A stretch of DNA of 64,000 nucleotides from Eledone cirrhosa. Its lineage: Eukaryota. Each line of letters opens with the position of its first letter. The first letter of the stretch is position 1. The notes under the pieces were generated by a model. The model was not told where the DNA came from. It did no database searches and saw nothing but the letters and a program-made list of their open reading frames with translations. The DNA is taken from assembly GCA_964016885.1 (NCBI GenBank), contig OZ024740.1:333126001-333190000 (forward strand), given 5' to 3'. Below, piece after piece: positions 7,906 through 64,000 of the stretch. Both the position numbers and the translations under genes were made by a program.

Positions 7906-8496
7906 GCTGCACCTTCTTCACATTAGAATTAAGGTAGTAACTACGTGTGAAATAGTCCGATAGGACATTTGACACTGCGGAATAATGCTATTATATACGA
8001 CAGTTGTTCTGTCATTTAAATGGCTTGAATAATTCTTCCAAGTTAAAATTGGTAAAGTTATAATAAACGATCAAATTCCAAATGTATATATACTTATGAA
8101 ATACCGTTTCGCAAGTGCAATTTCCATCACTAAATACACGTCAGTCCTTTTTCCGCCTCATGTAATATGTTTCAATTCCATATATAGCTTATGAGTGATG
8201 AAACACGGAATGATATTGCATTCATACTATCCAAGGAAGATTGTGGAGGACACGGATTTAATAAAATTGTTGTGTAAATATTGGTTATAGCAAATTTCCT
8301 GTCTAGTCAGCAGAAGTCTGTTTTGACAAAAGAAACTAATTGAAGAAACTTACTTCATTGAAAATATTTGATATTAAGGGCCTAAATCAATACAACATAT
8401 ACAGCTAACTTAGAATATTTATAAGGGTTTGTTTAAAAACATTGTAAATCGATATGTCGATTTTGGTTGTCACTATGAGCATATATATATATACTT

Positions 8497-11400
8497 CCTC
8501 CCCAAACTCCACAAACCCGACAACCCCGGCCGCCCCATCGTCTCCGCTTGCAACTGCCCCACCGAACTCATCTCCGCCTTTCTCGACTCCATCCTCGCCT
8601 CCCCTTGTCACCACCCTCCCCTCCCACATCTCCGACACCAACCATGCCCTGCGCCTTTTCGACTCCTTCACCTACCCACCCGGCCCACAGCCCTTCCTCT
8701 TCACCCTAGACATCAAGTCATCCCTCACGCCGACGGCCTACGCGCCCTCAAACACTACCTCGACCTTCGCCCCTCCCCCATTCCCTCCACCCCACCGTCC
8801 TTCGCCTCGCCGAGCTGGTCCTCACCCTCAACTGTTTCTCCTTCTCGGGTGAGTTTTACCAACAGGTCACGGGGGTAGCCATGGGTACAAGAATGGGCCC
8901 GAACTATGTCAACCTTTTTGTTGGCCATGTTGTGGCCCAAATCTTTTCCCAGTACACCAGCCCCACGCCCGAACTGTACGGTCGTTACATCGACGACTGT
9001 ATCGGAGCCACGACCCTCACCCGAGAACAGCTCGACTCCTTTCTCTCCTTCTTCTGATCCTTCCACCCCCCCTCCACTTCACCACCTCTATCTCCACCAC
9101 CCACGTCCACTTCTTAGACATCTCCGTCGCTTTCGACCCCTCCCAGCACTCCCTCGTCACCTCCGCCTTCTTCAAACACACCGACTCCCACTCTTACCTC
9201 GACTTCACCTCTTCCCACCCCACACACACTAAACACTCTATTCCCTACTCCCAACTCCTCTGGATCCGCGCCTCTGTAGCCGAGATGCCGACTTTGAGTC
9301 CCGGGCCCTTTCCCTAGTCAGCCATTTCATCCGCAGAGGTAACCCCCCACCCTCCCTCCCTCTCTCGTCCACACCGCTCTCACCCGCGCTCGTGCCGTCC
9401 ACCGCTCCACCACCCTCACCTCGCGCCACCGCACACCCACCCACCGTCTCCCCTTCCACATCACCTACCACCCCTCCACCATACCCCTCCACCGCACCAT
9501 CCTCCACCTCTTCCGACGCCTCCAGTCTGACCCATCCACCTCCCACATCTTCCCAGCCCCACAACTCCCCTCCTTCAAACGCGCACGCAATCTCCGCACC
9601 CTCCTCGTCCACAGCTCCCTACCCCCAACCCACGCTCTATCCCCCCCCCCCGGTTCATTTCCTTGTTCTAGGCCCCGCTGCAACACCTGTCCCAACATCA
9701 CCAACACCACCACCTTCCAGGGTCCCAACGGCCAATCTCTCTCTGTCCAGCATGCCTTCCGCTGCACCTCCTCCAACCTAGTCTACGGAATTCGCTGCAC
9801 GGTTTGCAGTGCGATTACGTCGGACAGACTGGACGTCGCCTGGCGGACAGATTTACTGAGCACCTCCGGGATATTCGTCTCGGTGATAATTCCCCCATCG
9901 CCCGCCACTTTGGTGCCCCTGGACATTCCGCACGCCATCTCACAGTCTGTGGCCTACTCCAATGCCACGGAACACCCGCCAATCTCCTAAGAGTTGAACA
10001 ACGAACCATCTTCATCTTACAGACCCACACTCCCCCCGGCCTGAACTCCCCACCCTTATTCATTTAGCCTTCGACCGCCCCCCTCCTCCCACACATATCA
10101 CCCACTAACACCACTAACACACCCCTCCTTTTCACCGCCCACCCCACAACTAACAATACTAACACCTCCACCCCACATCCGACCACCCTTCCCCAACTAA
10201 CATACTAACATCCCTCCCTTCTCCCCCCCCCTCCTTATCACACGCACACACCCACCGGCATATATATACACGCGCTCACACTAAACACACCCCCTACTAC
10301 CACCACTAACCCTCACCCCCACACATCCACCCCACCACCCCGCAACTAACATCACTAACACCCCGTGACCCCAAGCACACGAACACACACACCCACTTAC
10401 ACCACGCACCCTACACGCAACTAACATCACTAACACCCCCCAACCCTACGCACACGTACACACACACCCTCTTACACCACCCACTCTACATACCCTACCA
10501 CCACTGACCCTACACTCACACCCGCATTCAACCCTTTCTCCACCTCCTGTATACTAACACCCACTAACACCCCCTTCACCAACACACACACTAGTACACT
10601 ACACTCCCTCCATCGGCCCCCACCCCCTTTTCTCCCCGCTCCACCCACATCATTTCTCAAACACTCACTCATCCCACTAACACCTCTACTAATACACCTC
10701 CCTCTCCACTCCAACTTTCACACCTACCCATCCTCTCCCCTGTCCACCGCACACACTGACACACCTTCACTTACCATTCTACCCTACTGCTGCTATGCCC
10801 TCTGACCACCTCCCCGCACACACAGACACACAACACTCCTTCACTTACCATTCTACCCTACTGCTGCTATGCCCTCTGACCACTTCCCCGCACACACAGA
10901 CACACAACACTCCTCCTGCCTTGACCCTCTGACCAGTTCGTGTTGCGCGCGCACCCCACATCTCCGCTCTTCCGACCAATCTCTTCACGGATTACACTAT
11001 GTGAACCTTGATCCCGGAATCCACCACATCCAAGGATTTTACTAAGCATTCCACCACATCTTTTTACGGAATTACCTTTATGACTCCCCCCCCAAAAAAA
11101 AATTTCCCACACGCCACCTACACCCACAGCACGCATAAACACCACACACACACGTGCGTACCACCACATATTTACACATTCAGCCTCCGGAATCCTCTCC
11201 CCACCCCTCTATCCACAGACGGACACACACTCCGACCTACACCCACCCTACACACACCTCTTCCTAAACATGCAACCCCGTTCTTCCCCCAACCCTAGCT
11301 TTCACATACACACACACACACACGTACACCTACACACACACACTACCTTTAGCCCTCCCCGCTCTGACACCCCGTCTCCCTCTCCCCACTCCACCCGCCA

Positions 11401-11694
11401 CCACCCCTACACGCCCCACACCTTTCCACCACCTGTTTTACCCCATTTTAATTTTATTTTGATCATGCCTTTATTTTTAATTTCATTTGCACCGTTTCCT
11501 CTCGTCCCCTTTTTGCTATATGTCTCTCCACCACTCCCCTACACATCCTTTGAACTCTCTTCCCACACACTTTTCACCTGAAGAAGGGCTTATGCCCGAA
11601 ACGTCGTTCCCCACCACCAACCCACTCTCAAGAGCGTGAAATTAATAAACATTTGTTTGTACTGCCTCTCTGTTTAGTTCCCGTTCAATTTTTC

Positions 11695-12256: not shown

Positions 12257-12789
12257 ACACTTTGGGAGGGTCATGTTACCAATAAGAAACACACGCACCA
12301 ATTGCTTTCACTTCAATTTATTATAATAAATTTATAAATTTAGGAATTTATAAATGTCCGGTTGGTTGGTTCTACAACCAGATGATTGTTTATATATTGT
12401 CAAAGTTCTTTCGTCACACATTCTGTGACCTCTTCAGTGACTGGGGATTTTTTTCTTTGTTTTTGTGCCTCTCCTTTCTTCTGTCCTACGCCATCTTGTT
12501 TTTGTGTGTGTTGTGTGCTTAGTTTGCGCATGTGTTACATCCGGGTGTCTGTGTGTGTTTATATTTGTTTATTTATTTGTTTATTTACATGTTACTGATT
12601 GGTTGTTTGTTCTATGTGCGCGTGTGTTTTCATTTTATCCTTAATTGTAAGGTGTGATGTTGCTGTTCCATTTATGTTTTCTATTTAATTTTGGTTGGTG
12701 TTCATTTATGTTTATTGCCTCTGTGATTTGTCTAAACATTGCGTTTTTTATATATAAATATATATATATTTTCTTTTATCCTTCTATGT

Positions 12790-13579: not shown

Positions 13580-16260
13580 TTCATTTATTGTCGACAAGGG
13601 CCGACATGTAGGGGACAATGCAAAGAGACGGACAGTGGCATTTACAATAAGCTCGAGTAAAAGTGCACAATGATGAGACTAATTTAAGAATTAAAATATA
13701 AAAATATAAAAAATATTAAATAAACTATGCATAAATATAACAAAATAAATTCCCCAATAAGGGGGTGGCCGACGTCTAGGTCACCCGAGGAGAGCACTCC
13801 TCTCTCATCTTCACATTAACCAGCCTCTAGGTGGAAGGTCAGAGCAGGTCCACTCACACAGGCCATTCTCACCACATTCATCCACCTTTTAGCAAATGAC
13901 ATGGGGCAGCCCTTCTCTCTCCACCCTCACTTTCCTTTCGAGGTGAAACTTGAATAAGTTGATGAGGGATTGTCCGAAGAGAAAAGTGTCTGGCTTAAAT
14001 CCTTTCCACCATACATCTTTTGCAACTGGTCCACCATACATATTTCGCAACTGCCACCAGACAGAGAAAATTTGCCTGCCATTCCTGGCCAAAGGAAAGC
14101 GGCAGGGCGATCTTCACTATGGACTCGGCCGATAGCCGGATCCGTTCTGCACGCGACCACAGTTGTTCGATATAACTCCACAAGTCAGTAATGCACGGAC
14201 ATTGGACAAGTGCGTGCAGAAAGACTTCGTCGGTCTGTGCGCATCTCGGGCAGGTCCGTCTGACAGCACATCCATGCCTGTAGAGATTACCCCCAGATAG
14301 CACTGACAGGTGAGTAATTTCTGGAAGTTCCCCGGCTCGAAGCTCCTACGGAACAGATTGGTCAGTTCGACTTTGTCGAATCACAGAGCCTCTCCTAGTG
14401 CGTCATTGCACTTTCCCACCACTGATCCTCTATAGAACTCGAGGCATGAATTTCCAATGATCGCATTGCCCGCTTGGTAGATGGTAGTGAGTGCCTGGCA
14501 ACATTCCGGATGCCAGTCACCCAGTCCTGGTCTCTTCAGTCAAAGAGACGAAGTGCGAAGGGCCCGTCTGTTAAACGGCGACCACACCTGTTCTCCGCTT
14601 AGGCAGAATATCTGCAGATGTCGCAGCCTCAGCACATGTCGGTGCATCATTAACCACGACATGCCCAGTCTTCCACGTAGATGCTGGCAGCAGATGGACC
14701 ACCTCACCCACGGGACTTGTCCCCTCCACAAGAATTTGAAGTGGAGCCGTTCAAGCTTGGGGACGCGCGGACGGGGGAAGGGCACGACTGCCAGACTGTA
14801 GTAGATGACGGACGTGATATACCCATTCGCCATCTCCACATGACCTTTCAGTGATAGCTTCCTCGCAGACCATTTCTTGGTAAGACTGGCTAACCTGCTC
14901 GTTATTTCGTCCCAATTCTTATCCACCTGGCGGTCTGGTCCGAACCAAACTCCGAGAAACTTTATCAGTCCGTCCACCCAGCGCCCCACGACGCTGTTGG
15001 ACGGCATGGACTTGCCTCTCCAGGTGCCGAGCTGCAAGCCCACCAACTTTTCCCGGTTAAGTTTTGCTTCTGACAACTTTTAATATTCGTACAATAAGGT
15101 CCTGACCACCTCGTTTTTTCCGAGGTGTTCGACACCATCATGGTGATATCGTCCGCATAAGCCGACTCAGCCTTTCCGCTCTCCGTTTCGAACGGGATGC
15201 CCTGCAACAGCTCCTGCTTCCACAGTTAAAGCTTGAGAGTCAATACATATAGAAGGGAAGAGAGAGGGCACACTTGACGGACCGATCGGGAGACCTGAAA
15301 TGGTTTCGAGAGATGGCACTTAACCTTGACCACCATGCAGATGCCGCTGTGCATTGCAGCGATCCAGCTTCTGAAGACTGGGCCGAAACTAGCTGCATCG
15401 AGGACAGCCTGCATGTACCGATGTTCGACCCAATCGAATGCTTTTGATTGATCTAAATTGATCAGTGCCCACACCGAAACCAGGTTTACTCCCGCACTCT
15501 CCCTATGATGTTTTGCATGAGGTGGAGGTTGTCATTTATGGACCTAGTTTGGATTGTGCATGTTTGCCCCTACCCAACCAAATCCTCGAGGACAAGTGCC
15601 AACCTCTTTGCTAACACCTTGAACAAAATCTGAAACTGTGTGTTGAGCAGCATTATGGACCTGAAGTTGTTTAATGTATCCCCCGTGTCCTCGTCTTTCT
15701 TTAATAGCGTCACCACTGCCCTGCTTACATAACTCGCTATACTCCCATTCTGCTGCCAATTGCAGTAGAGCGTTTCGAGTATATCGGCAACACGTCTTGT
15801 ATATTTACGTAAAGCTAGTAGGGCAGGCCATCCAACCCAGGTGACTTTTACCGACAAGGGCGTCAGGAATTTCGGCTGAAATAATCGGCCTTTCGCAGCG
15901 CTCAGCGTCGACCGTCAAGATGCGCGGCAAGCCGCGAAGGTAGAGACTGAAGTCCACTAATGTCTCTGACGAACCACTCTCTCCGAACAACCGAGTAAAT
16001 TTCTGGCGATAGGCCTCACACATCCGCTTGGAATCGCTCACCTCGCTACCGTCTCGGTCCGTCGAAGACCGAACTGTGGATTTGTTACCACGCTGCACCT
16101 CCGCCATGCGGGCCCATTGAACAGATTTGGTTCCCTCATTTCTCAGGGCACGCGCCTCTGACAATGCAAAATTCGTGTTTCACATTGAAGAAATAGTATA
16201 ATCTCATTCTCGCCGCTAGCACGTCCGTTAAAATGCCACTACAAATCATTTTTCTATTTT
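13580..16260 (-). mobile_element. 5'-truncated, decayed Tx1-like LINE ORF2 (RT + C-terminal CCHC)
   Basis: LDQSKAFDWVEHRY, SVRQVCPLSSLLY, SAYADD, KFLGVWFG, CPRCAQTDEVFLHALVQC; collinear with the 29-35 kb element; AATAAA then (ATCATT)n at the 3' end. Confidence 0.92.
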
Positions 16261-16475: not shown

Positions 16476-17686
16476 ACAAGCAATGATAATAAGAAGGAAG
16501 GTGCAGTGAGGAGGATGATACAGATGGGTAATTAGGATTGGGGTATTTTGAAAAGTGTTATCTTAATGGAGTTTACCCATTGATGGTGATGTTTGCCATA
16601 TAGGGTGCTGTGTGTGAGAATGTGTGTCTATAAAGAAGGAATAATTAATCGCTGAGGGAGTGTTGGCTATTCTTGCGTCCGATTGGTGACAAGTTCATGA
16701 TTTTTCTTACCGATGATAGGTGTAGGGAGCTTTCACCCGTACGTGGTTAAACGTTAATCGTGGTAAAGAGCTGTAAAAGTGGTTCGCTGGCGCCAGTATT
16801 GTAGATGTTTTAAATCTGGGGAGTTGTGTCGTTTATCTGGATAATGAGGTTGCTGGATCGCATCGATTTCCGGCCGATCTACCTTATTTTTCAGTCATTT
16901 ACTATATATATATATATATATATATCTAAACGGAAAAAATGAAACGAAATCTCATTTCCCACTCTTAGTACGGCTGTTACTTAAATATAAGTATGTACAC
17001 GTACATACATATATGTATACAGACGTACAGTAGTATGTATATATATATATATCCATACATGCACTCATATATATATATGTACGTATGGATTCACCGAACA
17101 TTTATGATAATGCTCGGTGTGTTTGTAAACAAACATCCCTTATTAAGCCGTAGTGTCCAGTAGCCATCGTTGCTCGTTTGTTCAACACTGACAATGGAAC
17201 GCTTTACTAGTTTCAAGTTTATTACCTATCGTAAGCAACGTATACCTACCTGCCAGATTTTTGAACGTATATACTTACCTTATGCAGATTGACGGCTGAG
17301 TAGCCCAATTTGCATATCGACTGGGTTAATCAGCCGGGTGTATATATATATACATACATGCACACTTATATATATATGTACGTATGGACAATAAATGGAT
17401 AATAAATGTTCCGTGAATCCATACGTACATATATGTATATGTGTGCATGTGTGTATATATATATACATACAACTGTACGTCTGTATACACATATGTATGT
17501 ACGTGTATATACTTATATTTAAGTAACAGCCGTACTAAGAGTGGGAAATGAAATTTCGTTTCATTTTTCCGTTAATCGTTTTCGGTCCACCCAGCCGATT
17601 AACCCACTCGATATACAAATTGGGCTACTCAGTCGTTAATATGCATAAGGTAAGTATATAGGTTCAACAATCTGGCAGGAAGGTAT

Positions 17687-17729
17687 ACGTTGCTGACGAT
17701 AGCTAATAGGCTTGAAACTAGTACAACGT
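17687..17729 (+). ncRNA. Minimal type I hammerhead ribozyme (best copy in the array)
   Basis: ACGTTG-CTGACGA-T-AGCT-AATA-GGCT-T-GAAA-CTAG-TA^CAACGT; 6-bp stem I, palindromic ACTAGT stem III, GUA triplet. Confidence 0.88.
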
Positions 17730-18120
17730 TCCTTTGTCAGTGTTGAACAAACGAGCAACGAGGGTTGCTGGACACTACGGCTTAATACGTGATGTTTGTT
17801 TACAAACACACCGAGCATTATAATAAATGTTCGGTGAATCTATACGTACATATATATATGTGTGCATGTATGTATATATATATATATATATATACATACA
17901 TACTACTGTACGTCTGTATACATATATGTATGTACGTGTACATACTTATATTTAAGTAACAGCCGTACTATGAGTGGGAAATGAAATTTCGTTTCATTTT
18001 TTCCGTTTATCGTTTTCGGTCCACCCAGCCGATTAACTCACTCGATATGCAAATTGGGCTACTCAGTCGTTAATATGCATAAGGTAAGTATATACGTTCA
18101 ACAATCTGGCAGGAAGGTAT

Positions 18121-18163
18121 ACGTTGCTGACGATAGCTAATAAGCTTGAAACTAGCACAGCGT
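18121..18163 (+). ncRNA. HHR copy 2 with mutated cleavage triplet (GCA)
   Basis: acgttg CTGACGA tagctaataagctt GAAA ctagca cagcgt. Confidence 0.7.
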
Positions 18164-18551
18164 TCCTTTGTCAGTGTTGAACAAACGAGCAACGATGGTT
18201 GCTGGACACTACGGCTTAATACGGGATGTTTGTTTAAAAACACACCGAGTATTATAATAAATGTTCGGTGAATCCATACGTACATATATATATATGTGTG
18301 TGCATGTATATATATATATATATATACATACTACTGTACGTCTGTATACATATATGTATGTACGTGTACATACTTATATTTAAGTAACAGCCGTACTAAG
18401 AGTGGGAATGAAATTTCGTTTCATTTTTTCCGTTTATCGTTTTCGGTGCACCCATTCGATTGATTAACCCACTCGATATACAAATTTGGCTACTCAGCCA
18501 TTAATATGCATAAGGTAAGTATATACGTTCAACAATCTGCCAGTAAGGTAT

Positions 18552-18594
18552 ACGTTGCTGACGATAGCTAATAAGCTTGAAACTAGCACAGCGT
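18552..18594 (+). ncRNA. HHR copy 3 with mutated cleavage triplet (GCA)
   Basis: Identical to copy 2 across the motif. Confidence 0.7.
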
Positions 18595-18986
18595 TCCTTT
18601 GTCAGTGTTGAACAAACGAGCAACGATGGTTGCTGGACACTACGGCTTAATACGGGATGTTTGTTTAAAAACACACCGAGTATTATAATAAATGTTCGGT
18701 GAATCCATACGTACATATATATATATGTGTGTGCATGTATATATATATATATATATATATACATACTACTGTACGTCTGTATACATATATGTATGTACGT
18801 GTACATACTTATATTTAAGTAACAGCCGTACTAAGAGTGGGAATGAAATTTCGTTTCATTTTTTCCGTTTATCGTTTTCGGTGCACCCATTCGATTGATT
18901 AACCCACTCGATATACAAATTTGGCTACTCAGCCATTAATATGCATAAGGTAAGTATATACGTTCAACAATCTGCCAGTAAGGTAT

Positions 18987-19029
18987 ACGTTGCTGACGAT
19001 AGCTAATAAGCTTGAAACTAGTACAGCTT
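18987..19029 (+). ncRNA. HHR copy 4 (GUA triplet intact)
   Basis: acgttg CTGACGA tagctaataagctt GAAA ctagta cagctt. Confidence 0.78.
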
Positions 19030-19410
19030 TCCTTTGTCAGTGTTGAACAAATGAGCAACGATGGTTGCTGGACACTACGGCTTAATACGGGATGTTTGTT
19101 TAAAAACACACCGAGCATTATAATAAATGTTCGGTGAATCCATACGTACATATATGTATGTGTGCATGTATGTATATATATATACATACTACTGTACGTC
19201 TGTATACATATATGTATTTACGTGTACATACTTATATTTAAGTAACAGCAGTACTAAGAGTGGGAAATGAAATTTCGTTTCATTTTTTCCGTTTATCATT
19301 TTCGGTGCACCCATTCGATTGATTAACCCACTCGATATGCAAATTGGGCTACTCAGCCGTTAATATGCTTAAGGTAAGTATATACGTTCAACAATCTAGC
19401 AGGAAGGTAT

Positions 19411-19453
19411 ACGTTTCTGACGATAGCTAATAAGCTTGAAACTAGTACAGCGT
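19411..19453 (+). ncRNA. HHR copy 5 (GUA intact, stem I mismatch next to core)
   Basis: acgttt CTGACGA tagctaataagctt GAAA ctagta cagcgt. Confidence 0.72.
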
Positions 19454-19654
19454 TCCTTTGTCAGTGTTGAACAAATGAGCAACGATGGTTGCTGGACACT
19501 ACGGCTTAATACGGGATGTTTGTTTACAAACACACCGAGCATTATAATAAATGTTCGGTGAATCCATACGTACATATATGTATGTGTGCATGTATGTATA
19601 TATATATACTACTGTACGTCTGTATACATATTTGTATGTACGTGTACATACTTA

Positions 19655-19734
<80 letters not shown>

Positions 19735-21544
19735 CTGTGTGTGTGTGCATATATATATTTATATATATTGTTGCTAAGATGTGACGATAGCATGGTCAAC
19801 TGGATATACCCTCCTCATAACGTTGCCACTCAGCACCACTCTACAGACGTGGCAGGTGTAAGGAAGAGTATGCAGCTGCCTTAAAATCTCAGCCAACATA
19901 CAATCTCGAAAAGTGCCAGACATGTCTCATAACAGGACCCCCTATTTCACACAGAGAACACAAGGTAATCTAACCTATGCACAAATCGATGGCCTGGTCG
20001 TTGTGGTGTTCCTGATATCAGTAGCAACTGCTGCAATACCATAGTTTCCTCTCCTTCAAGATCACATGAAAATTGATGTATAATCGGGAGAAGTTGTTAT
20101 ATACCCATCATCCACATGACAACGTGTCATATATCCATTATCCACATGACAACATCTTTCGTTTCTGATATTATATGAGAAGTATTATCGGTGTAAATAC
20201 GTTGTAGCCATGTACAATTTGAAAAATAAGGAAAGCATAGTAAATTACAAGTGTTCCTGAAATGCATTTATGTTGAAGAATATAGTAGTGACATGAAATG
20301 ACATAAAACCTCTGCTTTATGATGAAGCATTTCGTTTTAAATAAGCTTTAACGAACATCACTGCTTTACACAATCGCTTTAAATCGTAAACAGTAAATAG
20401 ATGACAATTAATTAAGCAAGTGCCATATTACATAACTGAATATTACGTATAACTTTAACGATAAGATAGTTATTACTGAAATGTACTGGAGAATAGTTCT
20501 ATGGGTTTAGAGCTCAACAATCACAATCACAACATCTCTATCCTGAATATTTGAGTCCGAAAATCATATAAATACAAAGCCCATTCAATCAAGTAAGCAA
20601 TGAGAAAAATGCAATTTGTTCATCAAAGAAGTGGAAAAAGATGATGCGAAACGGAAACTTAGGAATATGTAAAGCGGAACTCTGTATGTTGAATACGCTT
20701 CTGTTTCCAAGTCGTATTGAAAAAGCATCTATATACGGAGCTTTCAGTAAGAACCAATATCATTAAACATGTTGTACGTGTCATACTGACTGAGCTATTG
20801 GGGATTCAAAATTTTGTGTGAAGCGGCAAGATTAACCTTATTTCCATTGGATGTATAAACGGGATGACAGGTGCATGTAGCTGAATGCAAATTTCATTAA
20901 GAAGTTGATTTTGGAGGGGGAGATAAAGAGAAAGAATGTGAAAACGAAATAGAGTAAGATTACACAGAAGCATTCTTTCTTTATGAGGATTTCAAATACA
21001 CAAAAAGAAACTCACAATTGATTGACTAGAGGAAGGTGTACATTGTTATGCATTAAAGTTGTAAATAGATATAAAATTACACTTGTTGCAATACTGCAGG
21101 CTATAATCATGTGCATCACGGAAGATACGTCTCTTTGCTGCAGAAGCGCTTGGTATACAGATCACAATAAAAAAATGATCCGTGACCTGATGTGCAGTAA
21201 TTTCATAGATGCTGAGTTTCTGTCATTAATTTATCAAGTCTACCAGTAATGCACCGGGTATTTGCTGGCCTTGTGCCTAAATTAGAAACAATTAATTTAT
21301 CAAGTCTACCAATTGAACTGAAGAAACCAATGCAGAAACTTGGTAGCATGTTCTCAGATTCCGTTCTCTATTCTGTTATACTTATTCCCCAATTCATTGA
21401 ATCACAACGACATGTGTACTACATTAATGCGAAGTTATGTCAAATTATTAATATAATTATTCTTAACTTCCACATTATTTATTGATTGCTATTTCCGTCA
21501 TTTGCACCCACAGTTATATATACAAGTATATAAATATATATATA

Positions 21545-31364: not shown

Positions 31365-34300
31365 ATGGCCAATATAAGAGTTGTATGTGTGAACGTACGC
31401 GGCCTGGGGATGCCCTGGAAACAGGACAAACTCTTAAACGACCTCAGGTCGCACAGTATGGATGTGGTAGCCATTTGCGAGTCCAGGATCCACAGCGAGC
31501 GACAGCTGGTCCCCATCTTCGATGACTTTAAGATCTACGTATCTCTCTGTCAACCGGAGGGTGGGGGGCGGAGTTGCCGTTTTGCTGCGGAAACACCTGG
31601 GCCTCGTAACACAGACAGTACATCTGGACCCGGAGGGTCGACTGGTGGTCCTAGCCGTTGACGGTAGTGAAGGTGGAGCCTTCAGTCTGGTGGCCGCATA
31701 TGCCCCATCCGGGACACCGCGGCCAGACTTCTTCAGACGTCTAGAGACTTTTCTGGGAACGTCCCGCTCCTTGCTTTTAGTGGGGGACTGGAATGGAATC
31801 CTAGATGCACGTTGGGACTATGTGGGAGCATGTCCCGATAAAGAGGGGTGTCACAGCCTCAAACAGTTAATCGACCGATTTGATCTGGCCGATAGATATC
31901 GACTAGATTTTCCGTCTACGCCACTGTGGACGTGGAGTAATCGTAGCGGAACATCTAGATCGTACCTAGATAGGGTTCTAGTTAGAAATAAGGATAGGGA
32001 CATGTTAAGCTGTCCACAAATGTTCATGGTGGCCTATTCAGATCACAAACTAGTGACCTTCATGGCCAACCTTGATAGAACCCATAGACAAGGACCCGGC
32101 TACTGGAAGCTGAACTTGTCGTTACCGACAAGCAAAGCCTACAGAAGACGGATTAGCACTTTAGTTGAACAGCACTTGACAGGGGCCATTGTCAACAACA
32201 GATGGTGGTACTCTCTCAAGAGGGCAGTTAGATTTGACTCGATAGTTTTTAGTAAAGAATTAGCGTTAGATAGAAATAGAACCGAGAAGGAACTGGTAGA
32301 TAAAGTAGAAGAGGCAATTAGAAGTGGCAACGTAGCCAGCGTGCTAGCAACGAGAACGGTCTTGGACCAGTTCTTCGACGCAAAGCACGAGGGCTGCGTT
32401 GTCAGAAGCAAAATACGTGCTCTGGGAAACGAGGGAGCCAAAGCTGTTAGCTGGGCCCGAGTGACGGAGGCAAAAAGTGGCAACAAGTCCACAATTCGGT
32501 CTTTGAAGGACCAAAACGGACGCGTGATACGTGAGCCGAAGCAGATGTGTGCGGCTTTTCAGCGGCACATTGCTCAGCTGTTCGGGGGGGGGGGGGGGGG
32601 GAGAGGCTATGGATTTCGGTCCATACCTCGACTCTCGGAAAGCGAGGCAAAGTTCTGCGAAAAGCCGATTTCAGCCACTGAGATAGGGGACGCGCTGAGC
32701 CAATGCGGCAAACGCAAATTTCCAGGTCTCGACGGTCTACCCTACGAATTTTACGTAGCAATGCCGGACTTATTCTCCGGTCTCCTGGAAGCGGTCTACT
32801 GCAACTGGCAACAGAACGGGAGAATTCCCAGTTCTGTAACCGGGGGCGTGGTCACACTAATCAGGAAGGACGAGAATAAGGGGGATGACATAGGCAACTT
32901 CCGGCCCATAACTATGCTAAACACAGAGTTACAGATTTTGGCCAAAGTGTTGGCAAAGAGGCTGGCGCTTGTCGTCGAGAACCTGGTTGGAGAAGCGCAG
33001 ACATGCGCAATCCCGACCAGATCAATACACGACAACCTCCACCTCATGCGATACATCATAGAGAGGGTAGGGTGTAAACCCGGCTTCGGTGGGACCCTGA
33101 TCATCTTGGATCAGTCTAAGGCTTTCGATAGGGTTGACCATCGTTACCTGGATGCGGTGCTCGAGGCGGCAGGCTTCGGACCCGTGTTCAGGGGCTGGAT
33201 TGCTGCAATGCACAACAGCAACATCTGCTCAAGGGTCAAGGTGAACGGCTACCTCTCAGAGCCGTTCAATCTTACGCGATCCATTCGACAGGGATGCCCT
33301 CTCTCCTCCCTTCTGTACGTACTGACTCTCGAGCTACTACTGCGGAAGCTGGAGCTATTGCAGGGCATCCCTCTGGAACCGGGACTGCGGAAAGCAGCGT
33401 CGGCCTACGCCGACGACGTGACAGTAATGGTGTCGAGCGCCTCGCAAATCGAGGAAGACGGCACCTTACTGAAGGAATACAAAAGTCTCACAGGAGCGAA
33501 GCTGAACCGGGACAAGTCCATCGGTTTGCAACTCGGATCGTGGAGAGGCGAACCGATGTCTTCCGATGGTGTCGTCGGACGCTGGACGGAAGGACCGGTA
33601 AAGCTGCTCGGGGTCTGGTTTGGTCCGGACCTCCAGGTGGAGAAGAACTGGAACGAAGTGACGGCCAAGGTGCTTGCACTCACCCAGAAGTGGGCCGAGT
33701 GAAAACTATCCTTGAAAGGTCGAGCGGAGGTGGCGAACACTTTTATAGCGTCCGCCATCTACTACCGCTTGACCGTCGTGCCTTGTCCAGCCAAAACGCT
33801 CGCCAAAATGGAGCGCGCGCTCTTCCGATTCCTTTGGAAGAGGCGGGCTCCTTTGGTGAGAAGATCCATCTGCTGCCAACACCCTTCTAACGGAGGGCTG
33901 GGGATGCCGTGGTTGACGATGCGCAAACACGCGCTGAGGCTGCGGCATCTCTACGTATTCCTCACCGGACAACCGGTGTGGGCCCCGTTCGTGAGGCGAG
34001 CCTTTCCACGACTCGTCTCGCTGACCGAGCTGCAGTCCTGGGTCAAGTAAAGACCGAGGAAAATGGGCGACTGGCACATCGAATGTGCTCAGGCGCTCAC
34101 AGCCCTCTGTCAGGCGGACCCGGCGAAGAGTGGAGACTCCACTTCGTCATTCTATAGAGGGTTGGTCTGCAGCAAGTGCGACGACGCGCTCGGTGAAACT
34201 CTAGGCGTAGAGGAAGATGAACTGGCCAGTCTGTTCGGTAGGACCTTCCGCCCGGGACCGATGGACAGCTTCCAAAAGTCCCTGGCCTGGCAGTGCTACC

Positions 34301-34790
34301 GAGGAGCTCTACCAGTTCGAGACAAGCTCTACAGACATGGGCGCCCGGGCAGGGACCCTGCAAAAAAGATCTGCCCGAGGTGCGTGCGAGACGAAGAAAC
34401 CGTCGCGCACGCATTCATACAGTGCCCGGGCGTCACTGACCTGTGGGGCTATGTAGAACGACTATTGTCGCGGGTGGGACCAATCCGGTTGACCACCGAG
34501 TCCATTGTCATGATCAAACCGCCACCCTCCTTCAAAAACGAAGGAGAGGCGGTTTTCCTTTGTGTGATAGCTATGACGAAAAAGGTTGTATGGTGGACAA
34601 GGTTGAAAGGGCTGAGGTCAGACACCTTTCTCTCCGGCCAACAACTGATTCTTTTTTTTCAAATACCACTATGGAAGAAGAATCAGGATGGAGAGAGAGG
34701 TGCTCTACCCCAGCAAGTTTTATGAAAGCTGGGTGAAAGTGGCGAGAATGGCCCGAGTGAATGGGCCTTCTCTCTATATCAGCCTGTAGG
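31365..34790 (+). pseudogene. ORF2: AP endonuclease + reverse transcriptase + CCHC finger
   Basis: CVNVRGL, GDWN, SYLDRVLV, SDH; PGLDGLP, LDQSKAFDRV, RQGCPLS, YADD (33406-33417); CPRC..ETVAHAFIQC; frameshift near G-run ~31560, in-frame stops at 33700 and 34048, frameshift at T-run ~34655. Confidence 0.92.
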
Positions 34791-49486: not shown

Positions 49487-52400
49487 ATTCAGTAGTTAAG
49501 TAAAACAAGACCACAAATTTACATAGAAGACAATAGTCACAGAGTATCAACATTAAGTGCAGTTTAATATAGAAAGGGGATAGTAATGTCAGTTTACAAT
49601 AATTTCATTACTCCATATAATGTTTCTGGATCAATCTATGGTAAGAGAGTTATTGGTTAGTTGGTGTAGAGAAATATAAGTAACATAGAATAATATTATG
49701 GAGCAGATCTTCGGAACTTGGGGAAAGATAATGAGATTATTACTATATATAAAGCAGAAATCAAAAAAAGTTAAAATAAAAATAAAAATAAAATGGGAGG
49801 GTTACGTGTCCGTAAAGAATCCTCAGATTAGCAACTCCCTAGATGGCGCACCTTGGCACTGGAGAATTTCATGTGTATTATATAAATAAACATCAGATGT
49901 CTGTCGAGGCTGAAGGTAAACACTGGTGCCTATCACATACCAAAATGGTATGTGATAGGCAAAATGGTTATGTGATAGATATGGGTTTCAAGGGAGGTAA
50001 CTCCTTGGAGTGCCAAGAATCCCACTAGGTGCTGTAACCAAGGTAGTGTAGGGAGGTAGCTTTTAGGTATAGTTGCAGTGGGATTTGTAGCTAAGGTGGG
50101 GTAACTTATAGGTGCTTATGTGGTGGACTAATTATGCCATTAATTTGTTAGTTTTAGGGAGGTGCATGACTAAAGGATGGGCTAAGCTGCGTCGAATATT
50201 CTGTTGGCGAAGGAACTCGCTCTGCGGTGGTGGCAATTGATCACCAACTTGTTCCTGTCATTGATAGGGGGTAGCTGTGATAAAGTTATGTGATAGGCCT
50301 CGCAAGAATTTTTTCTCCCGTTAAATGCAGGAGGTCTAGCTAAGATATACCAAGCTATTGAATGTTCAATGTTGGCTAGTCTAAGGTTTTTAATGAGCCT
50401 AGTTAAAGAAGTTGAGCATCTATTGCTAGGGTCGCGGAAGGAAAATGAGTGCGCATTATAGCGAACCTTAAAGGGGTTTTATGTAGAAGCAATATAAGAG
50501 CTAGTGGATGAGGCCGTTCTAACCCTGCACCTATTTACGATATTGGGCGTAAGGCACTGGCCGTTAAGCGGTCACGCAGTGGGGTTACCGCAGTTGCAAT
50601 TACGGTTGCGATTAGTAGGAGTAGGGTTGTTTAAACTATGCGGCTGGTGTGTACTAGAGGGATTGGAGGGGGGTGTTTTGTTATTATGATGGATATTGGT
50701 ACAGCTACGTGGAGTAGTTATGGAAGGGGGGTGCAGAAGGGGGCTGAGTTATATTTTTTTAGTTTATGATAGTTGCTAAATGCGAAGTGGCTAGGTAGGT
50801 TCGGTGTAGTGGAGAAAGAGATTTTAATATTGTTTTTTTTATTAAAGAGCTTGTAATATCTATGGGGGGGGGGTATGTTTAGATAGGGTGGAGAAGAAGC
50901 GTTTACGGAAGTTGGTAGCTACATTAGATGAGAGAGGGGGCTTGATCCAGGTGATTTTTCTAGGCCTGTTGCGTCTGTGGGGTCTAACAGAGTTGGCAGT
51001 GTCATTACTAGGATTATTATTGCCAATGTGCTTGCTAGTGGTCGGCCTATTATCATTTCTTAATCTAGGGTTGATTCTGAATCTGCTACTAGGAGTAGGG
51101 AGTTGGCCTCTGCCACTATTACGATTAGCTGTATAGGTATTGGTAGGCCTAGAATTCCGGCAAATCTGGCTAAATGCTAATGTGTTTCTAATTCTAGTGT
51201 TATAGTTATTGGAGTTGTGGTGCAGTTCTGTGTTATGGCCCTTAGGTATGTAGTAGATAGACTGTGTATAACCAGATTCAGAAAGGGCCTTATTATAATA
51301 TGCCGCATGGGCATTTAATATCTCCCCATTGGCATGTAGCAAGGACATCCTATATGAAATAGAGTTAATGACCGCTCTGATGACTGCCGGTGGGTGGTTA
51401 GAGTGCGGGCTAATATAATTAAGTATTTCACCTGGCTTATGATAAGGGTAATAGAGGTTGTTAGTATGATCAAGGGTGACATCAAGGAAATTCACTACCT
51501 CCTGATTAGTTTCGATAGTAATAGATAGACTGTTACTTTTAAAGAATCTGTGTAGTTGTTTTTTGAGCAATTCAATGTCACGATCCGTGCGATTGTGGAC
51601 CGTAAATAGGGCGTCGTCCCTATATAATCCCCCTAGCAACGGTGGGATTTCAGCTCTAATGTTATGTAAGAGGTAGATTCCGACTAAGTCTGTGACTTGC
51701 GCCGAATCGCTAGAGCCCATTGTGATATCAAAGATATCCGCTCTGTCCTTTCTTGTCCAGAACGAGCCTTTGAATTCGATAATGGTCTGCCTAGTCATAA
51801 GGATGATGTCAATCTCTTTATTAGTGATGTCTGAATTAGTGTAAGCTAGGGTTAATGCTTTGTTAATCAGTGCCGTGGATATAGAAGCGTAGTAACCGTC
51901 AATGTCGAACTGGAGAAACCTCATCGAGTCCTTGGACCCAAGGTCTGAGAATCATCAGATGACTTGGCCGGTGTTAGACTACAGTTTATATGTGATAGCG
52001 TCTCGCATGCCAGGGATGATCCTATCGAGAATGTTCTTGCTGATACGACCCAAGTCAGAGGTGGTAGGGCTAATAAGGCTAATAGAAGGGTTCTCAATAA
52101 AGTTGGGTTTATGATCCTTGAAAGAGAATCTTGGTGTTGTGGGTACATATGGGTAGGTGAATCTGTCAAGATGTAAATCCTTAACGTAGGCCTGGGCTTT
52201 GCGGTTGAGTAAATTTACACTGGACGATTTAGCTTTTTTACAATTCTTATTAAGTTCCTTAAGGCGGAAAAAGTTTAAGTTTCACGAGGCATAGTATATA
52301 GATTTTTAGTTTTATCGGACATAACGTGTATGAGGTGGCTACTTTTAAAGTTTTTGATGGTTGTTGCTAATTTAATGAGAAAGTTATTATTCCGATTCAG

Positions 52401-52900
52401 CTTGTTGAATGTAATGCTCCTGATGACATTAAAGAGGTCCTTCTCAAATAGTTCCAGCAGGATGTTGTGTGGTGGGTTCTTGCAGGTGGTAAATCCATAT
52501 CTATCGGTGGTACTTCCCGCGTCGGTGGACGTTAGACTGTCGAAGTGGAAAGCTTTCCATCGTACCCTCCGGATAAATGTATTGATACTCTGTGTTACGA
52601 GTTTGAGGTAGGTCTTCTTGTCCGGGATGGGAATGGACTTCAGTGAGATCCTGAGTTCCTGTTTGCTCAACATGGTGGCTTCTAATTTTTAATAGCTCAA
52701 CAGCAGGATTCGGGTATAGACAGTTCAAGTGTAAACCAATCTTACATAGAGAGATAGAAGTAGGATAGGAGAGATTGGTGACGGTGTCAGAAGCCAAACA
52801 TTAAAAGCGGGGGCTCGATGTGGAGAACAGTTGAAAACTGGATTCATGCTGGGATTAGGTGTACAGAGCTCTTACAAGCAGTAAGAAAGAAACAGACGGG
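49487..52900 (-). mobile_element. Near-full-length Penelope-like element (Hydra-like type), disrupted RT + GIY-YIG
   Basis: SLKSIPIP N-terminus, SDKTKNLY, RLISPTTSDLG, FLQFDIDGYYASI, FDITMGSSDSAQVTDLVG, GLYRDDAL, VNFLDVTL, SNHPP, CNCGNPTA*PLNGQC, FKVRYNAH; 3' pLTR ends at (TA)n; 5' boundary approximate. Confidence 0.9.
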
Positions 52901-53520: not shown

Positions 53521-53945
<425 letters not shown>

Positions 53946-59871: not shown

Positions 59872-60350
59872 TTCACTCGATATGCAAATTAGGCTGCTCA
59901 GCCGTTAATATGAATAAGGAAAGTATATGCTTTCAAACGTTCAATCTACTGACAGAAAGGTATACGGTGCTGATGAAGCTAATAAGCTAGAAACTAGTTC
60001 ATCGTTTCTTTTTCAGTGCCGAACACTGTACGGCTACTAATTCAGGCTGTTTGTTTACAAACAAACCGAGCATTATAAAAAAATGTTCGCTAAACCCATA
60101 CGTACATATATATATGTGTGCATGTATGTTTGTATATACATACGCGTGTACATCTATATATATATATGTATGTACGTATAACATACTTATATTTAAGTAT
60201 CAGCCGTACTAAGAGTGAGAAATGAAATTTCATTTTTTCCATTTATCTTTTTCGGTACACCCGGCCGACTAACTCACTCGATATTCAAATTAGGCTGCTC
60301 AGCCGTTAATATGCATTAAGAGTGAGAAATGAAATTTCATTTTTTCTATT
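59872..60350 (+). repeat. Dispersed, diverged ~1.1x monomer of the 16.9-19.7 kb HHR repeat
   Basis: cactcgatatgcaaatt.ggct.ctcagccgttaatatg at both ends; HHR at 59964-60005. Confidence 0.88.
59964..60005 (+). ncRNA. Minimal type I HHR in the dispersed monomer
   Basis: ACGGTG-CTGATGA-AGCT-AATA-AGCT-A-GAAA-CTAG-TT^CATCGT. Confidence 0.8.
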
Positions 60351-60621
60351 TATATATGTATATACGTATATATATATATATAAAATCAAGGTCTAGCAAA
60401 TAGAGAAAAAGTTTTAAAATAAATTTTTAAAAAATCGGTGTACTTACTATGTGTGCCTTTACCGCGGTTTCAAGTTCCAGAATAAACGGATAATCCAAGC
60501 GGACTTCCATTGAGAAGGAAACCATCTTCAGAACGCTCTTCCCACTCGGAGAATATAACATTTCCGAGTTCAAACCACAAACTGACGCCATACAGAACCA
60601 TTCACAGATGAGAGTGTATGA

Positions 60622-61601: not shown

Positions 61602-64000
61602 AAAATTTGAACAGGAACAAAACAGAGAGGCAGTACAACGAATGTTTATTAATTTCACGCTCTGGAGAGTGGGGTGTGGTGGGGAATGACGTTTCGGGCA
61701 TAAGCCCTTCCTCAGGTGAGAAGTGTGTGGGAAGAGAGTTCAAAGGGTGTGTAGGGGAGTGGTGGAGAGACATATAGCGAAAAGGGGAGGGGGAACGGTG
61801 CGAATGAAATTAAAAATAAAAATAAAAATAAAGCATGATCAAAATAATATTAAATGAAATAAAAATGAATATAAAAGCATGATCAAAATAAACTGAAATT
61901 AAAAAGGGGTAAAACAGGTGGTGTAAGGGTGTGGGGTGTGTAGGGGTGGTGGCGGGTGGAGTGGGGAGAGGGAGACGGGGTGTCCGAGCGGGGAGGGCTG
62001 AAGGTGGTGTGTGTGTGTGTAGGTGTACGTGTGTATGTGTGTGTGTGTATGTGGAAGCAAGGGTTGGGGGAAGAACGGGGTTGCATGTTCAGGAAGAGGT
62101 GTGTGTGGGGTGGGGTGTAGGTCGGAGTGTGTGTGCGTGTGTTGATAGAGGGGTGGGGGAGAGGAATCCGGAGGCTGAAGGTGTAAATATGTGGTGGAAA
62201 GCACGTGTGTGTGGGGTTTAAGCGTGTTGTGGGTGTAGGTGGCGTGTGGGAGAAAAAAGATTTTTCTGGGTGTGTGTGTGGGTGAGTTATATAGGTGATT
62301 CCGTAAGAGGGTGTGGTTGAAATGTTGGTAAACTCCTATGATGGTAGTAGATTCCACGGTGGTCAAGTTCCACATACGAGTATTCCATGAAGAGATGGTC
62401 GGAAGAGGAGACATGTGGGGTACGCGCGCAACAGGAAGTGGTCAAGGCGGTGGGAGTGCTGTGTGTCTGTTTGTGCTGGGAGGTGGTCAGAGGGCATAGC
62501 AGCAGTCGGGTGGAATGGTAAAGGGGCGAGGATGGGTAGGTGTGGAAGTTGGAGTGAGGGGGTGTGTGTGTGTATTAGTAGAGGTGTTAGTGGGATGAGT
62601 GAGTGTGGAGAAAGGGTGTGGGTGGAGCGGGAAGAGAAGGGTGTGGGGGTCGATGGAGGGAGTGTGGTGTACTGGTGTGTGTGTAGTTTGATGAAGGGTG
62701 TGTTAGTGGGTGTTAGTATACGGGAGTTGGGGAAAGGGTTGAATGCAGGTGTGAGTGGGGTTTAGTGGTGGTAGGGTGTGTAGAGTCGGTGGTGTACGAG
62801 CGTGTGTGGGTACCTGTGCGTGGGGTTGGGGGTGTTAGTAATGTTAGTTGCGTGTAGGGTGGTTGGTGTAAGTGGGTGCGTGTGTTCGTGTGCTTGGGGT
62901 CACGGGGTGTTAGTGATGTTAGTTGCGTGGTTTTGGGATGGAGGTGTGGGGGTGAGGGTTAATGGTGGTAGTAGGGTGTGTGTTTAGTGTGAGCGTGTGT
63001 ATATATGTGCCGGTGGGTGTGTGCGTGTGATAAGGAGGGGGAGAAGAAGGGAGGGATGTTAGTATGTTAGTTGGGGAAGGGTGGTCGGATGAGGGGTTGA
63101 GTGGAGCTGCTAGTATTGTTAGTTGTGGGGTGGGCGGTGAAAAGGAGGGGTGTGTTAGTGGTGTTAGTGGGGGATATGTGTGGGGGGAGGGGCGGTCAAA
63201 GGCTAAAGAAATAAGGGTGGAGAGTTCAGGCCGGGGGGAGGGTGGGTCTGTAGGATGAAGATGGTTCTTTGTTCGACTCTGAGGAGATTGGCGGGTGTTC
63301 CGTGGCATTGGAGTAGGCCACAGACTGTGAGATGACGTGCGGAATGTCCAGGGGCACCAAAGTGGCGGGCGATGGGGGAACTACCACCGAGACGAATATC
63401 CCGGAGGTGCTCAGTGAATCGGTCCGCCAGGCGACGTCCCGTCTGTCCGTAGACTAGGTTGGAGGAGGCGCAGCGGAAGGCATGCCGGAGAGAGAGAGAG
63501 TGGCCGTTGGGACCCTGGAAGGTGGTGGTGTTGGTGATGCGGGGACAGGTGTTGCAGCGGGGCCTAGAACAGGGAAAGGAACCGGGGGGGAGCGTGGGCT
63601 GGGGGGGGGGGGGGGTAGGGAGCTGTGGACGAAGATGGTGCGGAGATTGCGTGCGCGTTTGAAGGAGGGGAGTGGTGGGGTTGGGAAGATGTGGGAGGTG
63701 GAGGAGACGGTGGGTGGGTGTACGGTGACGTCGGGTGAGGGTGGTGGAGCGGTGGACAGCACGGGTGCGGGTGAGAGCGGTGTGGACGAGAGAGGGGGGG
63801 TAACCTCTGCGGATGAAATGGCTGACTAGGGAAAGGGCCTGGGACTCGAAGTCAGCATCTCGGCTACAGAGGCAGCGGATCCTGAGGAGTTGGAAGTAGG
63901 GAATAGAGTGTTTAGTGTGTGTGGATGGGAAGAGGTGAAGTCGAGGTAAGAGTGGGAGTCGGTGAGTTTGAAGAAGGCGGAGGTGACGAGGGAGTGCTGG
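61598..64000 (-). mobile_element. Second copy of the Neptune-like PLE (continues past the window end)
   Basis: Reverse complement of ~9140-11698 with internal deletions; ends at (TA)n. Confidence 0.92.
61688..61715 (-). ncRNA. Minimal HHR motif in PLE 3' repeat
   Basis: CTGAGGA-A-GGGC-TTAT-GCCC-GAAA-C-GTC; differs from the 11578 motif only at the free N7 position. Confidence 0.75.

Follow-up and report, generated by a model that had tools for sequence, protein, structure and literature searches.

The repeat of about 432 nt described here is most probably (probability about 0.8) a non-LTR retrozyme family, whose copy at 59873-60353 of the window (the whole 64,000-nt stretch of Eledone cirrhosa DNA that was analysed) was likely inserted by a Penelope-like reverse transcriptase that primed at a nicked (TA)n tract and copied a longer-than-unit RNA from a fixed site. 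This reading, like most of those below, is drawn from genomic sequence. The copy itself is unremarkable and decaying, and its family is a new one of a known kind; the genome, of 3.0 Gb, is rich in TA microsatellites.

Anatomy of the copy and of the array

The repeat is non-coding, with 52 measured units of 419-464 nt, and positions on the monomer (m) are numbered from the predicted cleavage site. An earlier note on this DNA described a diverged copy far from an array and took the family to be dispersed. The copy does lie 40.2 kb beyond the array end (19660), and a 19-mer from the repeat's flank has 14,664 exact matches in the genome, against 0 for the reversed control. The features of the copy and of the array are as follows.

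59873..60353, + strand: single-armed copy, subfamily B, of the hammerhead repeat (~432 nt); it runs from m305 across the cleavage site as far as m347 in the following unit and then jumps to about m236-m277
59956..60011, + strand: predicted type I hammerhead motif (stem I with a bulge, core, stem II, stem III, GUU triplet)
60014..60024, + strand: site of a private 23-25-nt deletion, with the 5' strand of a long helix and the m31-46 hairpin lost
60097..60195, + strand: TA/CA/TG-rich self-complementary arm, ending in a small hairpin that holds the 'short' 3' site (about m217-221)
60196..60246, + strand: the 'tail', which separates the short and long 3' sites (overall consensus 56 nt, subfamily B about 51)
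60274..60316, + strand: 43-bp terminal redundancy, repeating 59873-59915 with 2 mismatches
60317..60353, + strand: 37-bp second copy of the tail (repeat of 60210-46), stopping at the 'long' 3' site, m277
60354..60382, no strand: TA-rich run at the 3' junction, adjoining the copy's 3' end, the putative target
17399..19660, + strand: tandem arm of subfamily A (5.3 units) that stops at the short site and leads into (TA)n
16927..17340, - strand: inverted arm of the same insertion as 17399..19660, ending at the long site into (TA)n, with core G5 changed to U

In the copy, the two strands of stem I lie at 59964-69 (ACGGTG) and 60000-05 (CATCGT), and the core at 59970-76 (CTGATGA) and 59990-93; positions 59990-99 read GAAACTAGTT, and the predicted cut falls after 59999. 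The stem I, N7 and triplet letters are thus those that had been reported. Stem II has 4 bp and an AAUA loop, while stem III is minimal and palindromic. All 11 invariant core letters are intact, stem I pairs, and stem II is predicted with a probability of 0.70. However, the description of every change as one that hammerheads tolerate overlooked three others: the base at position 10.1 is deleted, which leaves an unpaired A ahead of G12 (a gap there occurs in 2 of 144 loci); position 11.1 has changed from U to A; and the 23-25-nt deletion (after 60018) takes out one strand of the long helix that extends stem I.

The copy is 77-79% identical to the array units and 76% identical to the inverted arm. 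The hammerhead cores of the array (GC 0.355 across 18001-20000) lie at 17693, 18127, 18558, 18993 and 19417, with U16.1 changed to C in two of the five. The stem I difference between array and copy had been given as U-A becoming G-U, but the second strand reads CAACGT in only one of the five array units (CAGCGT in three, CAGCTT in one). The usual pair in the array is therefore U.G, with U-A in that one unit, and the family switch is U.G versus G.U.

The terminal redundancy noted earlier is real (43 bp, 2 mismatches). The right end is less simple than a unit with redundant termini: beyond the 43-bp repeat the register jumps back by about 110 nt, and a 37-bp duplication (60210-46 / 60317-53) then runs to the fixed 3' site. 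No target-site duplication longer than 5 bp was found in the 40-nt flanks, and no open reading frame of at least 150 aa across the array or the copy.

The hammerhead is identified by its sequence pattern and by covariation. An Rfam scan of the 64-kb window gave no hammerhead at E<=1; its 124 matches at that threshold all fall under the gathering scores and are nearly all microRNA models on TA/CA repeats. The 61-nt hammerhead fragment of the copy, folded alone, is no better than its shuffles (z -0.9), and short hammerhead fragments folded alone are uninformative (z between -1.3 and +0.6). Further hammerhead-like patterns occur in the window at 12437 (-), 44698 (-), 44868 (+), 49149 (+) and 53327 (+), several of them beside TA runs. 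In addition, a short head-to-head repeat at 53560-53780 adjoins a TA run and has a core-like sequence at 53714 with a palindromic, stem III-like ACGATCGT; it is possibly an old two-armed insertion of another family.

Subfamilies and abundance

A genome search with the copy returned 3,359 candidates, of which 40 were scored and 30 loci fetched. The copy's stem I, N7 and GUU letters are common to most of these 30 related loci. The copy differs from an array unit at 40 of 306 sites, and 30 of the differences match the consensus of subfamily B (38 loci); from the B consensus itself it differs at 12 of 316 sites (3.8%), the median of the 38 B loci being 3.7%. To judge from these comparisons, the three changes described as tolerated are marks of subfamily B, inherited rather than selected in the copy.

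Positions 10.1 and 11.1 switch jointly in the family, from U.U (86 loci) to C.A (36 loci). In subfamily B, a hairpin that would compete with stem II is predicted to arise from the changes at 11.1 and 17 (probability 0.59, against 0.36 for stem II). Given this hairpin and the C.A mismatch, the folding model suggests that the B ribozyme may be weak, although B has spread.

Exact genome matches number 831 for the B-type hammerhead 31-mer and 13,186 for the U.U type. Older variants of the repeat were seen in 4 of 50 loci fetched for unrelated proteins of Penelope-like elements (PLEs), namely L214, L232, L241 and L247, which suggests a true copy number several-fold above the exact-match counts. The same subfamily letters are present in contigs of four sequencing runs from three organisms; the kind of run is undeclared, and these contigs are silent on expression.

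Two fixed 3' ends and scattered 5' ends

Arms were mapped in 144 merged loci and the window array. Thirty loci came from similarity to the copy; the rest were the first pattern matches on contig C1 (0-84 Mb) and lean to younger copies. The 30 copy-similar loci were excluded from the core tests and kept in the stem I pair, end, fold-column, pair, substitution and shared-variant counts. Of 262 arms mapped, two at locus edges were dropped, as were matches below 78% identity, leaving 260.

The 3' ends fall at two sites about 56 nt apart in 196 of the 260 arms (101 at m215-225, 95 at m269-279), with 64 ending elsewhere. Slightly wider windows give 208 arms with canonical ends, 161 of which enter TA repeats on the 3' side and 20 on the 5' side. 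The 5' ends are spread over the whole monomer, and arm length exceeds one unit in 96 of the 208 and two units in 13. The earlier note had counted fixed ends shared by all copies against its circular or multimeric template. Half of that pattern was found: 3' ends cluster at two fixed sites, and only 5' ends are permuted. This combination argues for Penelope-type target-primed reverse transcription over random entry into a circle. The longer-than-unit template stands; a circle and an uncleaved multimer both fit it.

Eighty-one head-to-head pairs of arms were found. Both ends are canonical in 54 of them, of which 51 use one site in each arm and three the long site twice. After removal of duplicate loci, 49 of 51 independent pairs follow the one-site-per-arm rule (P 6e-13), and the insertion in the window obeys it too (long at 16927, short at 19660). 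A search for hidden micro-arms beside single arms was unconvincing, with an end motif in 7 of 72 flanks against 14 of 282 control windows.

Opposite arms have 31 rare variants in common over 35 pairs, against a mean of 2.0 and a maximum of 6 in shuffled pairs; gene conversion could be an alternative source of these variants. The shared changes are biased in direction, with 12 A>G against 2 T>C, compared with 20 against 21 among unshared ones (P 0.026). RNA editing is only suggested by this bias, because a single locus contributes five of the 12 shared A>G changes, another of the 12 is a recurring lineage mark, and A>G shows no significant strand excess across the genome (108 against 85, P 0.15). 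Sharing of A>G among passes of one arm (4 against 0) was rejected as a sign of editing, three of the four being one recurring lineage mark. The two-armed B insertion L106/L107 (G000:C1 21.377-21.378 Mb), in which five or six sense-strand A>G changes are common to both arms, is a candidate scar of an edited template.

The cleavage site was considered as a stop for the 5' ends. Ends at m1-14 number 13 of 208 against 6.6 expected (P 0.018), but the windows m323-329 and m229-232 score higher, and no claim is made. The count of arms that cross the cleavage site (170 of 208) is inflated, since loci were chosen by anchors at m10-42.

A young sister family

A pattern search for a replaced stem II gave 5,335 matches to a young sister family of 467-468 nt, collinear with the ~432-nt repeat and 64% identical to it. 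Its core is unchanged, a canonical pair (G10.1-C11.1) is present, the triplet is GUU, and stems I and II are swapped with compensation. A GUU triplet is cleaved less well than GUA or GUC; its presence in a young family indicates that GUU is at least compatible with spreading. The sister-family loci L171-L200 (e.g., L186:1310-10000) hold long two-armed arrays with units up to 100% identical, and both arms of young insertions contain arrays of at least 10 near-identical units. The end sites are homologous to those of the ~432-nt repeat (m230-235 and m304, with a tail of about 70 nt), and by a hand count in 26 loci all 13 pairs with two canonical ends are mixed. A few single arms (L177, L191, L193) carry a tiny inverted piece of the other end site at the 5' side.

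Selection on the fold and decay of inserted copies

The family consensus has a type I core and three stems in each unit; the core is invariant across subfamilies and the sister family, and the stems covary. Three pairs show two-sided compensation within the family: the variable stem I pair (127 loci: G.U 56, U.G 44, A-U 19, G-C 3, unpaired or gapped 5), m31:46 (G-C 50, A-U 46, G.U 34) and m244:305 (A-U 76, G-C 17, G.U 6). An 11-row alignment, with the sister family among its rows, has both sides changed in 6 of 16 hammerhead pairs (score 0.315, against 0.116 when shuffled); the rows were hand-picked and are related, and these scores are not a probability. Folded as a circle, the 432-nt consensus reaches -140.5 kcal/mol with 71% of bases paired (z -8.2 over 60 shuffles; -6.1 minus the microsatellite arm). 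This fold pairs 21 of 38 diagnostic columns, 14 of which keep pairing in at least 94% of copies; the other seven break the pair in one subfamily, and four of these belong to two switches in which both partners change together to a mismatch.

Private substitutions are equally frequent at paired sites (589 of 23,770, 0.0248) and unpaired sites (268 of 10,924, 0.0245; P 0.91), and the hammerhead core is broken in 20 of 99 copies picked via flank anchors. Core changes are somewhat fewer than expected (17 against 24.4, P 0.08; 15 against 24.6, P 0.03), a mild deficit that may come from minor replicating lineages counted among the private changes. These sequence patterns support the view that the fold is selected among replicating templates and hardly in inserted copies, which decay. 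The selection on RNA structure proposed earlier is thus upheld for replicating templates, where covariation speaks for it, and not for the copy itself, whose changes are common to subfamily B.

It is improbable, by the same evidence, that the window copy was itself selected for a working ribozyme after entering at a random point from a circle. The intact core, paired stem I and predicted stem II of the copy fit such selection, as do core sites that mutate at 60-70% of expectation across copies. However, the deficit is what minor replicating lineages in the private class would produce; the copy carries deletions of its own, at 10.1 and within the long helix, and matches the subfamily median in divergence; paired and unpaired sites mutate alike and a fifth of the cores are broken; and its 3' end is the family's fixed site.

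A probable Penelope-type route of insertion

The preferred reading, insertion by a Penelope-like reverse transcriptase, can be put as a series of steps. Tandem copies would be transcribed, and the hammerhead would cut its own RNA, letting it circularise; stem III is probably formed between units via an ACUAGU palindrome. Only templates that keep the fold would replicate further. A Penelope enzyme would nick both strands of a TA repeat, and cDNA would start at m277 on one strand and at about m221 on the other, from the same RNA or from sibling RNAs. The cDNAs would then pass the cleavage site and be joined at variable ends. The window copy, whose start at m277 marks its only visible arm, would have lost about 325 nt and ended near m305, for a total of about 1.9 units. 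The loss, near a TAAG microhomology, may reflect a template jump or a later deletion. The terminal redundancy of the copy would accordingly be the remnant of an arm of about 1.9 units.

The features matched to Penelope elements are two alternative 3' ends with a tail, 5' truncation with an adjacent inverted copy, and a TA-repeat target. Several points stand against the model: 64 arms end elsewhere; the tail, at 56 nt here and about 70 nt in the sister family, exceeds the printed 30-40 bp; the loci searched gave no autonomous partner; seven paired columns of the consensus fold break in one subfamily; subfamily B has spread with a ribozyme that may be weak; the variants common to opposite arms could stem from gene conversion, and the genome-wide A>G excess is not significant; and the Anolis PLE, in vitro, started alike on both strands and did without hammerhead cleavage.

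The template is where the strongest alternative lies. The same enzyme may have copied an uncleaved linear multimer of the source array, with no circles and with the hammerhead mattering at another stage only. This proposal, to which a little under even odds are given, concerns the template alone and can hold together with the main reading. Statements on published work here and below refer to the parts of each source that were available. Arms run past the cleavage site and show a weak stop there at most, which favours a linear template, as does the role of unprocessed RNA as the main in vitro substrate (PMC11167929). Successive passes in 63 arms have just 13 rare variants in common, several of them recurring lineage marks. 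Conversely, the core and stems are kept between families only 64% identical, which points to selection for cleavage in the replicating line; the long arrays of near-identical units in both arms of young sister-family insertions also weigh against linear templates, and retrozyme RNA in coral, mussel and axolotl is mainly circular (PMC7229834).

A stronger version of the Penelope route, offered tentatively and judged rather doubtful, is that one Penelope enzyme pair copies a small, A-to-I-edited RNA circle from two fixed sites at once, one per nicked strand. If true, two-site twin priming would be obligatory and would account for both the Penelope tail and the inverted arm. On this view the repeats would be RNA replicators of a viroid-like kind, their fold shaped by selection while off the chromosome, and one subfamily of them would have spread with a ribozyme that a hairpin weakens.

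Least probable is that a LINE, or DNA-level processes such as unequal crossing-over or extrachromosomal DNA circles, spread the repeat as a satellite or SINE-like sequence in which the hammerhead is carried along. Tandem arrays and the RTE and other LINE pieces adjoining some loci agree with this, but the end map contradicts it: relative to the sense strand of the RNA, the 3' ends have fixed positions and the 5' ends do not, each arm has its own site, and there is neither a poly(A) tail nor a fixed 5' head. A SINE was also rejected on the scattered 5' ends and on the absence of tRNA, 5S or 7SL matches at E<=1 in the Rfam scan of the window. The RTE-type LINE 3' piece at L144:2050-2943 lies within a subfamily-B copy, between about m96 and m106, and is thus a later insertion rather than a sign of LINE-driven spread.

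Search for an autonomous partner

The genome is rich in PLE-like open reading frames, with 35,490 and 8,590 candidates at first look; one of the families stops in (TA)n. Fifty loci from two PLE-like families, and the regions flanking the 144 repeat loci, yielded no autonomous element with sequence (pLTR) in common with the repeat. Recurrent flanks were rejected as partners, being RTE LINE pieces or unmasked repeat, and the four repeat copies among the 50 PLE-centred loci proved to be neighbours rather than pLTRs. The PLE labels of the four open reading frame pieces are putative and based on sequence motifs; Pfam gave no match for any of the four.

The window holds what we take to be two broken Penelope-like copies, at 8414-11620 (+) and 61700-64000 (-), with reverse transcriptase and GIY-YIG-like pieces; Pfam gave no match for the PLE-like pieces at either place. 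In each there is a minimal hammerhead motif, with its core at 11578 (+) in the first and at 61715 (-) in the second; the motif recurs in 5 of 20 related loci. A third stretch, 49490-52700 (-), is presumably a broken PLE-like element of another clade. Its relatives number 35,490 candidates, and those at L219, L220, L222 and L226 stop at one fixed site into (TA)n. This clade is a candidate for the TA-targeting enzyme, with no sequence in common with the repeat. The window also contains a LINE at 31471-34725 (+), with an AP endonuclease and a reverse transcriptase (Pfam PF03372, PF00078) in a 743-aa open frame, and a related fragment at 14540-15079 (-).

Comparison with known systems

The family resembles the metazoan non-LTR retrozymes (PMC7229834), which carry a type I hammerhead in each 150-450-bp unit of a low-GC, non-coding, self-paired tandem. 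The weak palindromic stem III is shared as well, as is the U.U mismatch at the base of stem II, found in the axolotl HHR_Amex2. The Eledone family differs in its subfamily with C.A at 10.1-11.1 and GUU. Furthermore, its insertion ends are mapped and bear Penelope marks, whereas in that work the mobilising route was proposed. Dimer formation via a palindromic stem III has been described (PMC3088659), and the available part of that source has no mention of a variant with 10.1 deleted and nothing on position 11.1 or GUU. In the literature searched, nothing was found on the family or on the one-arm-per-site rule, and the main text of an octopus repeat annotation, as available, does not contain 'hammerhead', 'ribozyme' or 'retrozyme' (PMC13282606).

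Retrozymes, mainly of vertebrates, have been described as non-autonomous PLE derivatives that arose from pLTRs, on the basis of co-occurrence and homology (Li, Clavereau, Pollet; bioRxiv 10.64898/2026.07.22.740005). The same mobilising machinery is concluded there, for dispersed monomers and arrays alike. The evidence here is instead junction anatomy, the homologous pLTR being absent from the loci searched.

Inverted 5'-truncated copies, partial tandems, a one-sided tail of 30-40 bp and a (TA)n bias are Penelope features (PMC8557442, PMC3846280). The tail has been explained as the stretch between two internal reverse transcriptase start sites, a trait of PLEs only, and both target strands are cut and extended in vitro (PMC11167929). 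The present family is like EN+ Penelope-like elements in its 5' truncation, partial tandems, inverted copy, one-end tail, AT-rich or (TA)n target and two reverse transcription starts; unlike them, it has no open reading frame and a longer tail. In the in vitro study of the Anolis PLE, the start site was alike on both strands and hammerhead cleavage was dispensable (PMC11167929). This absence of a strand difference contrasts with the near-strict one-arm-per-site rule of the insertions studied here (49 of 51 and 13 of 13).

The thousands of insertions in this genome would thus record Penelope-like enzymes mobilising animal retrozymes, a process that the literature available has so far proposed. 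The family separates selection on replicating RNA from neutral decay of genomic copies. The one-site-per-arm rule, together with template variants common to the arms, provides a testable model of the Penelope tail and inverted arm, and the in vitro PLE assay already in use could draw its substrates directly from the young sister family and the short RNA.
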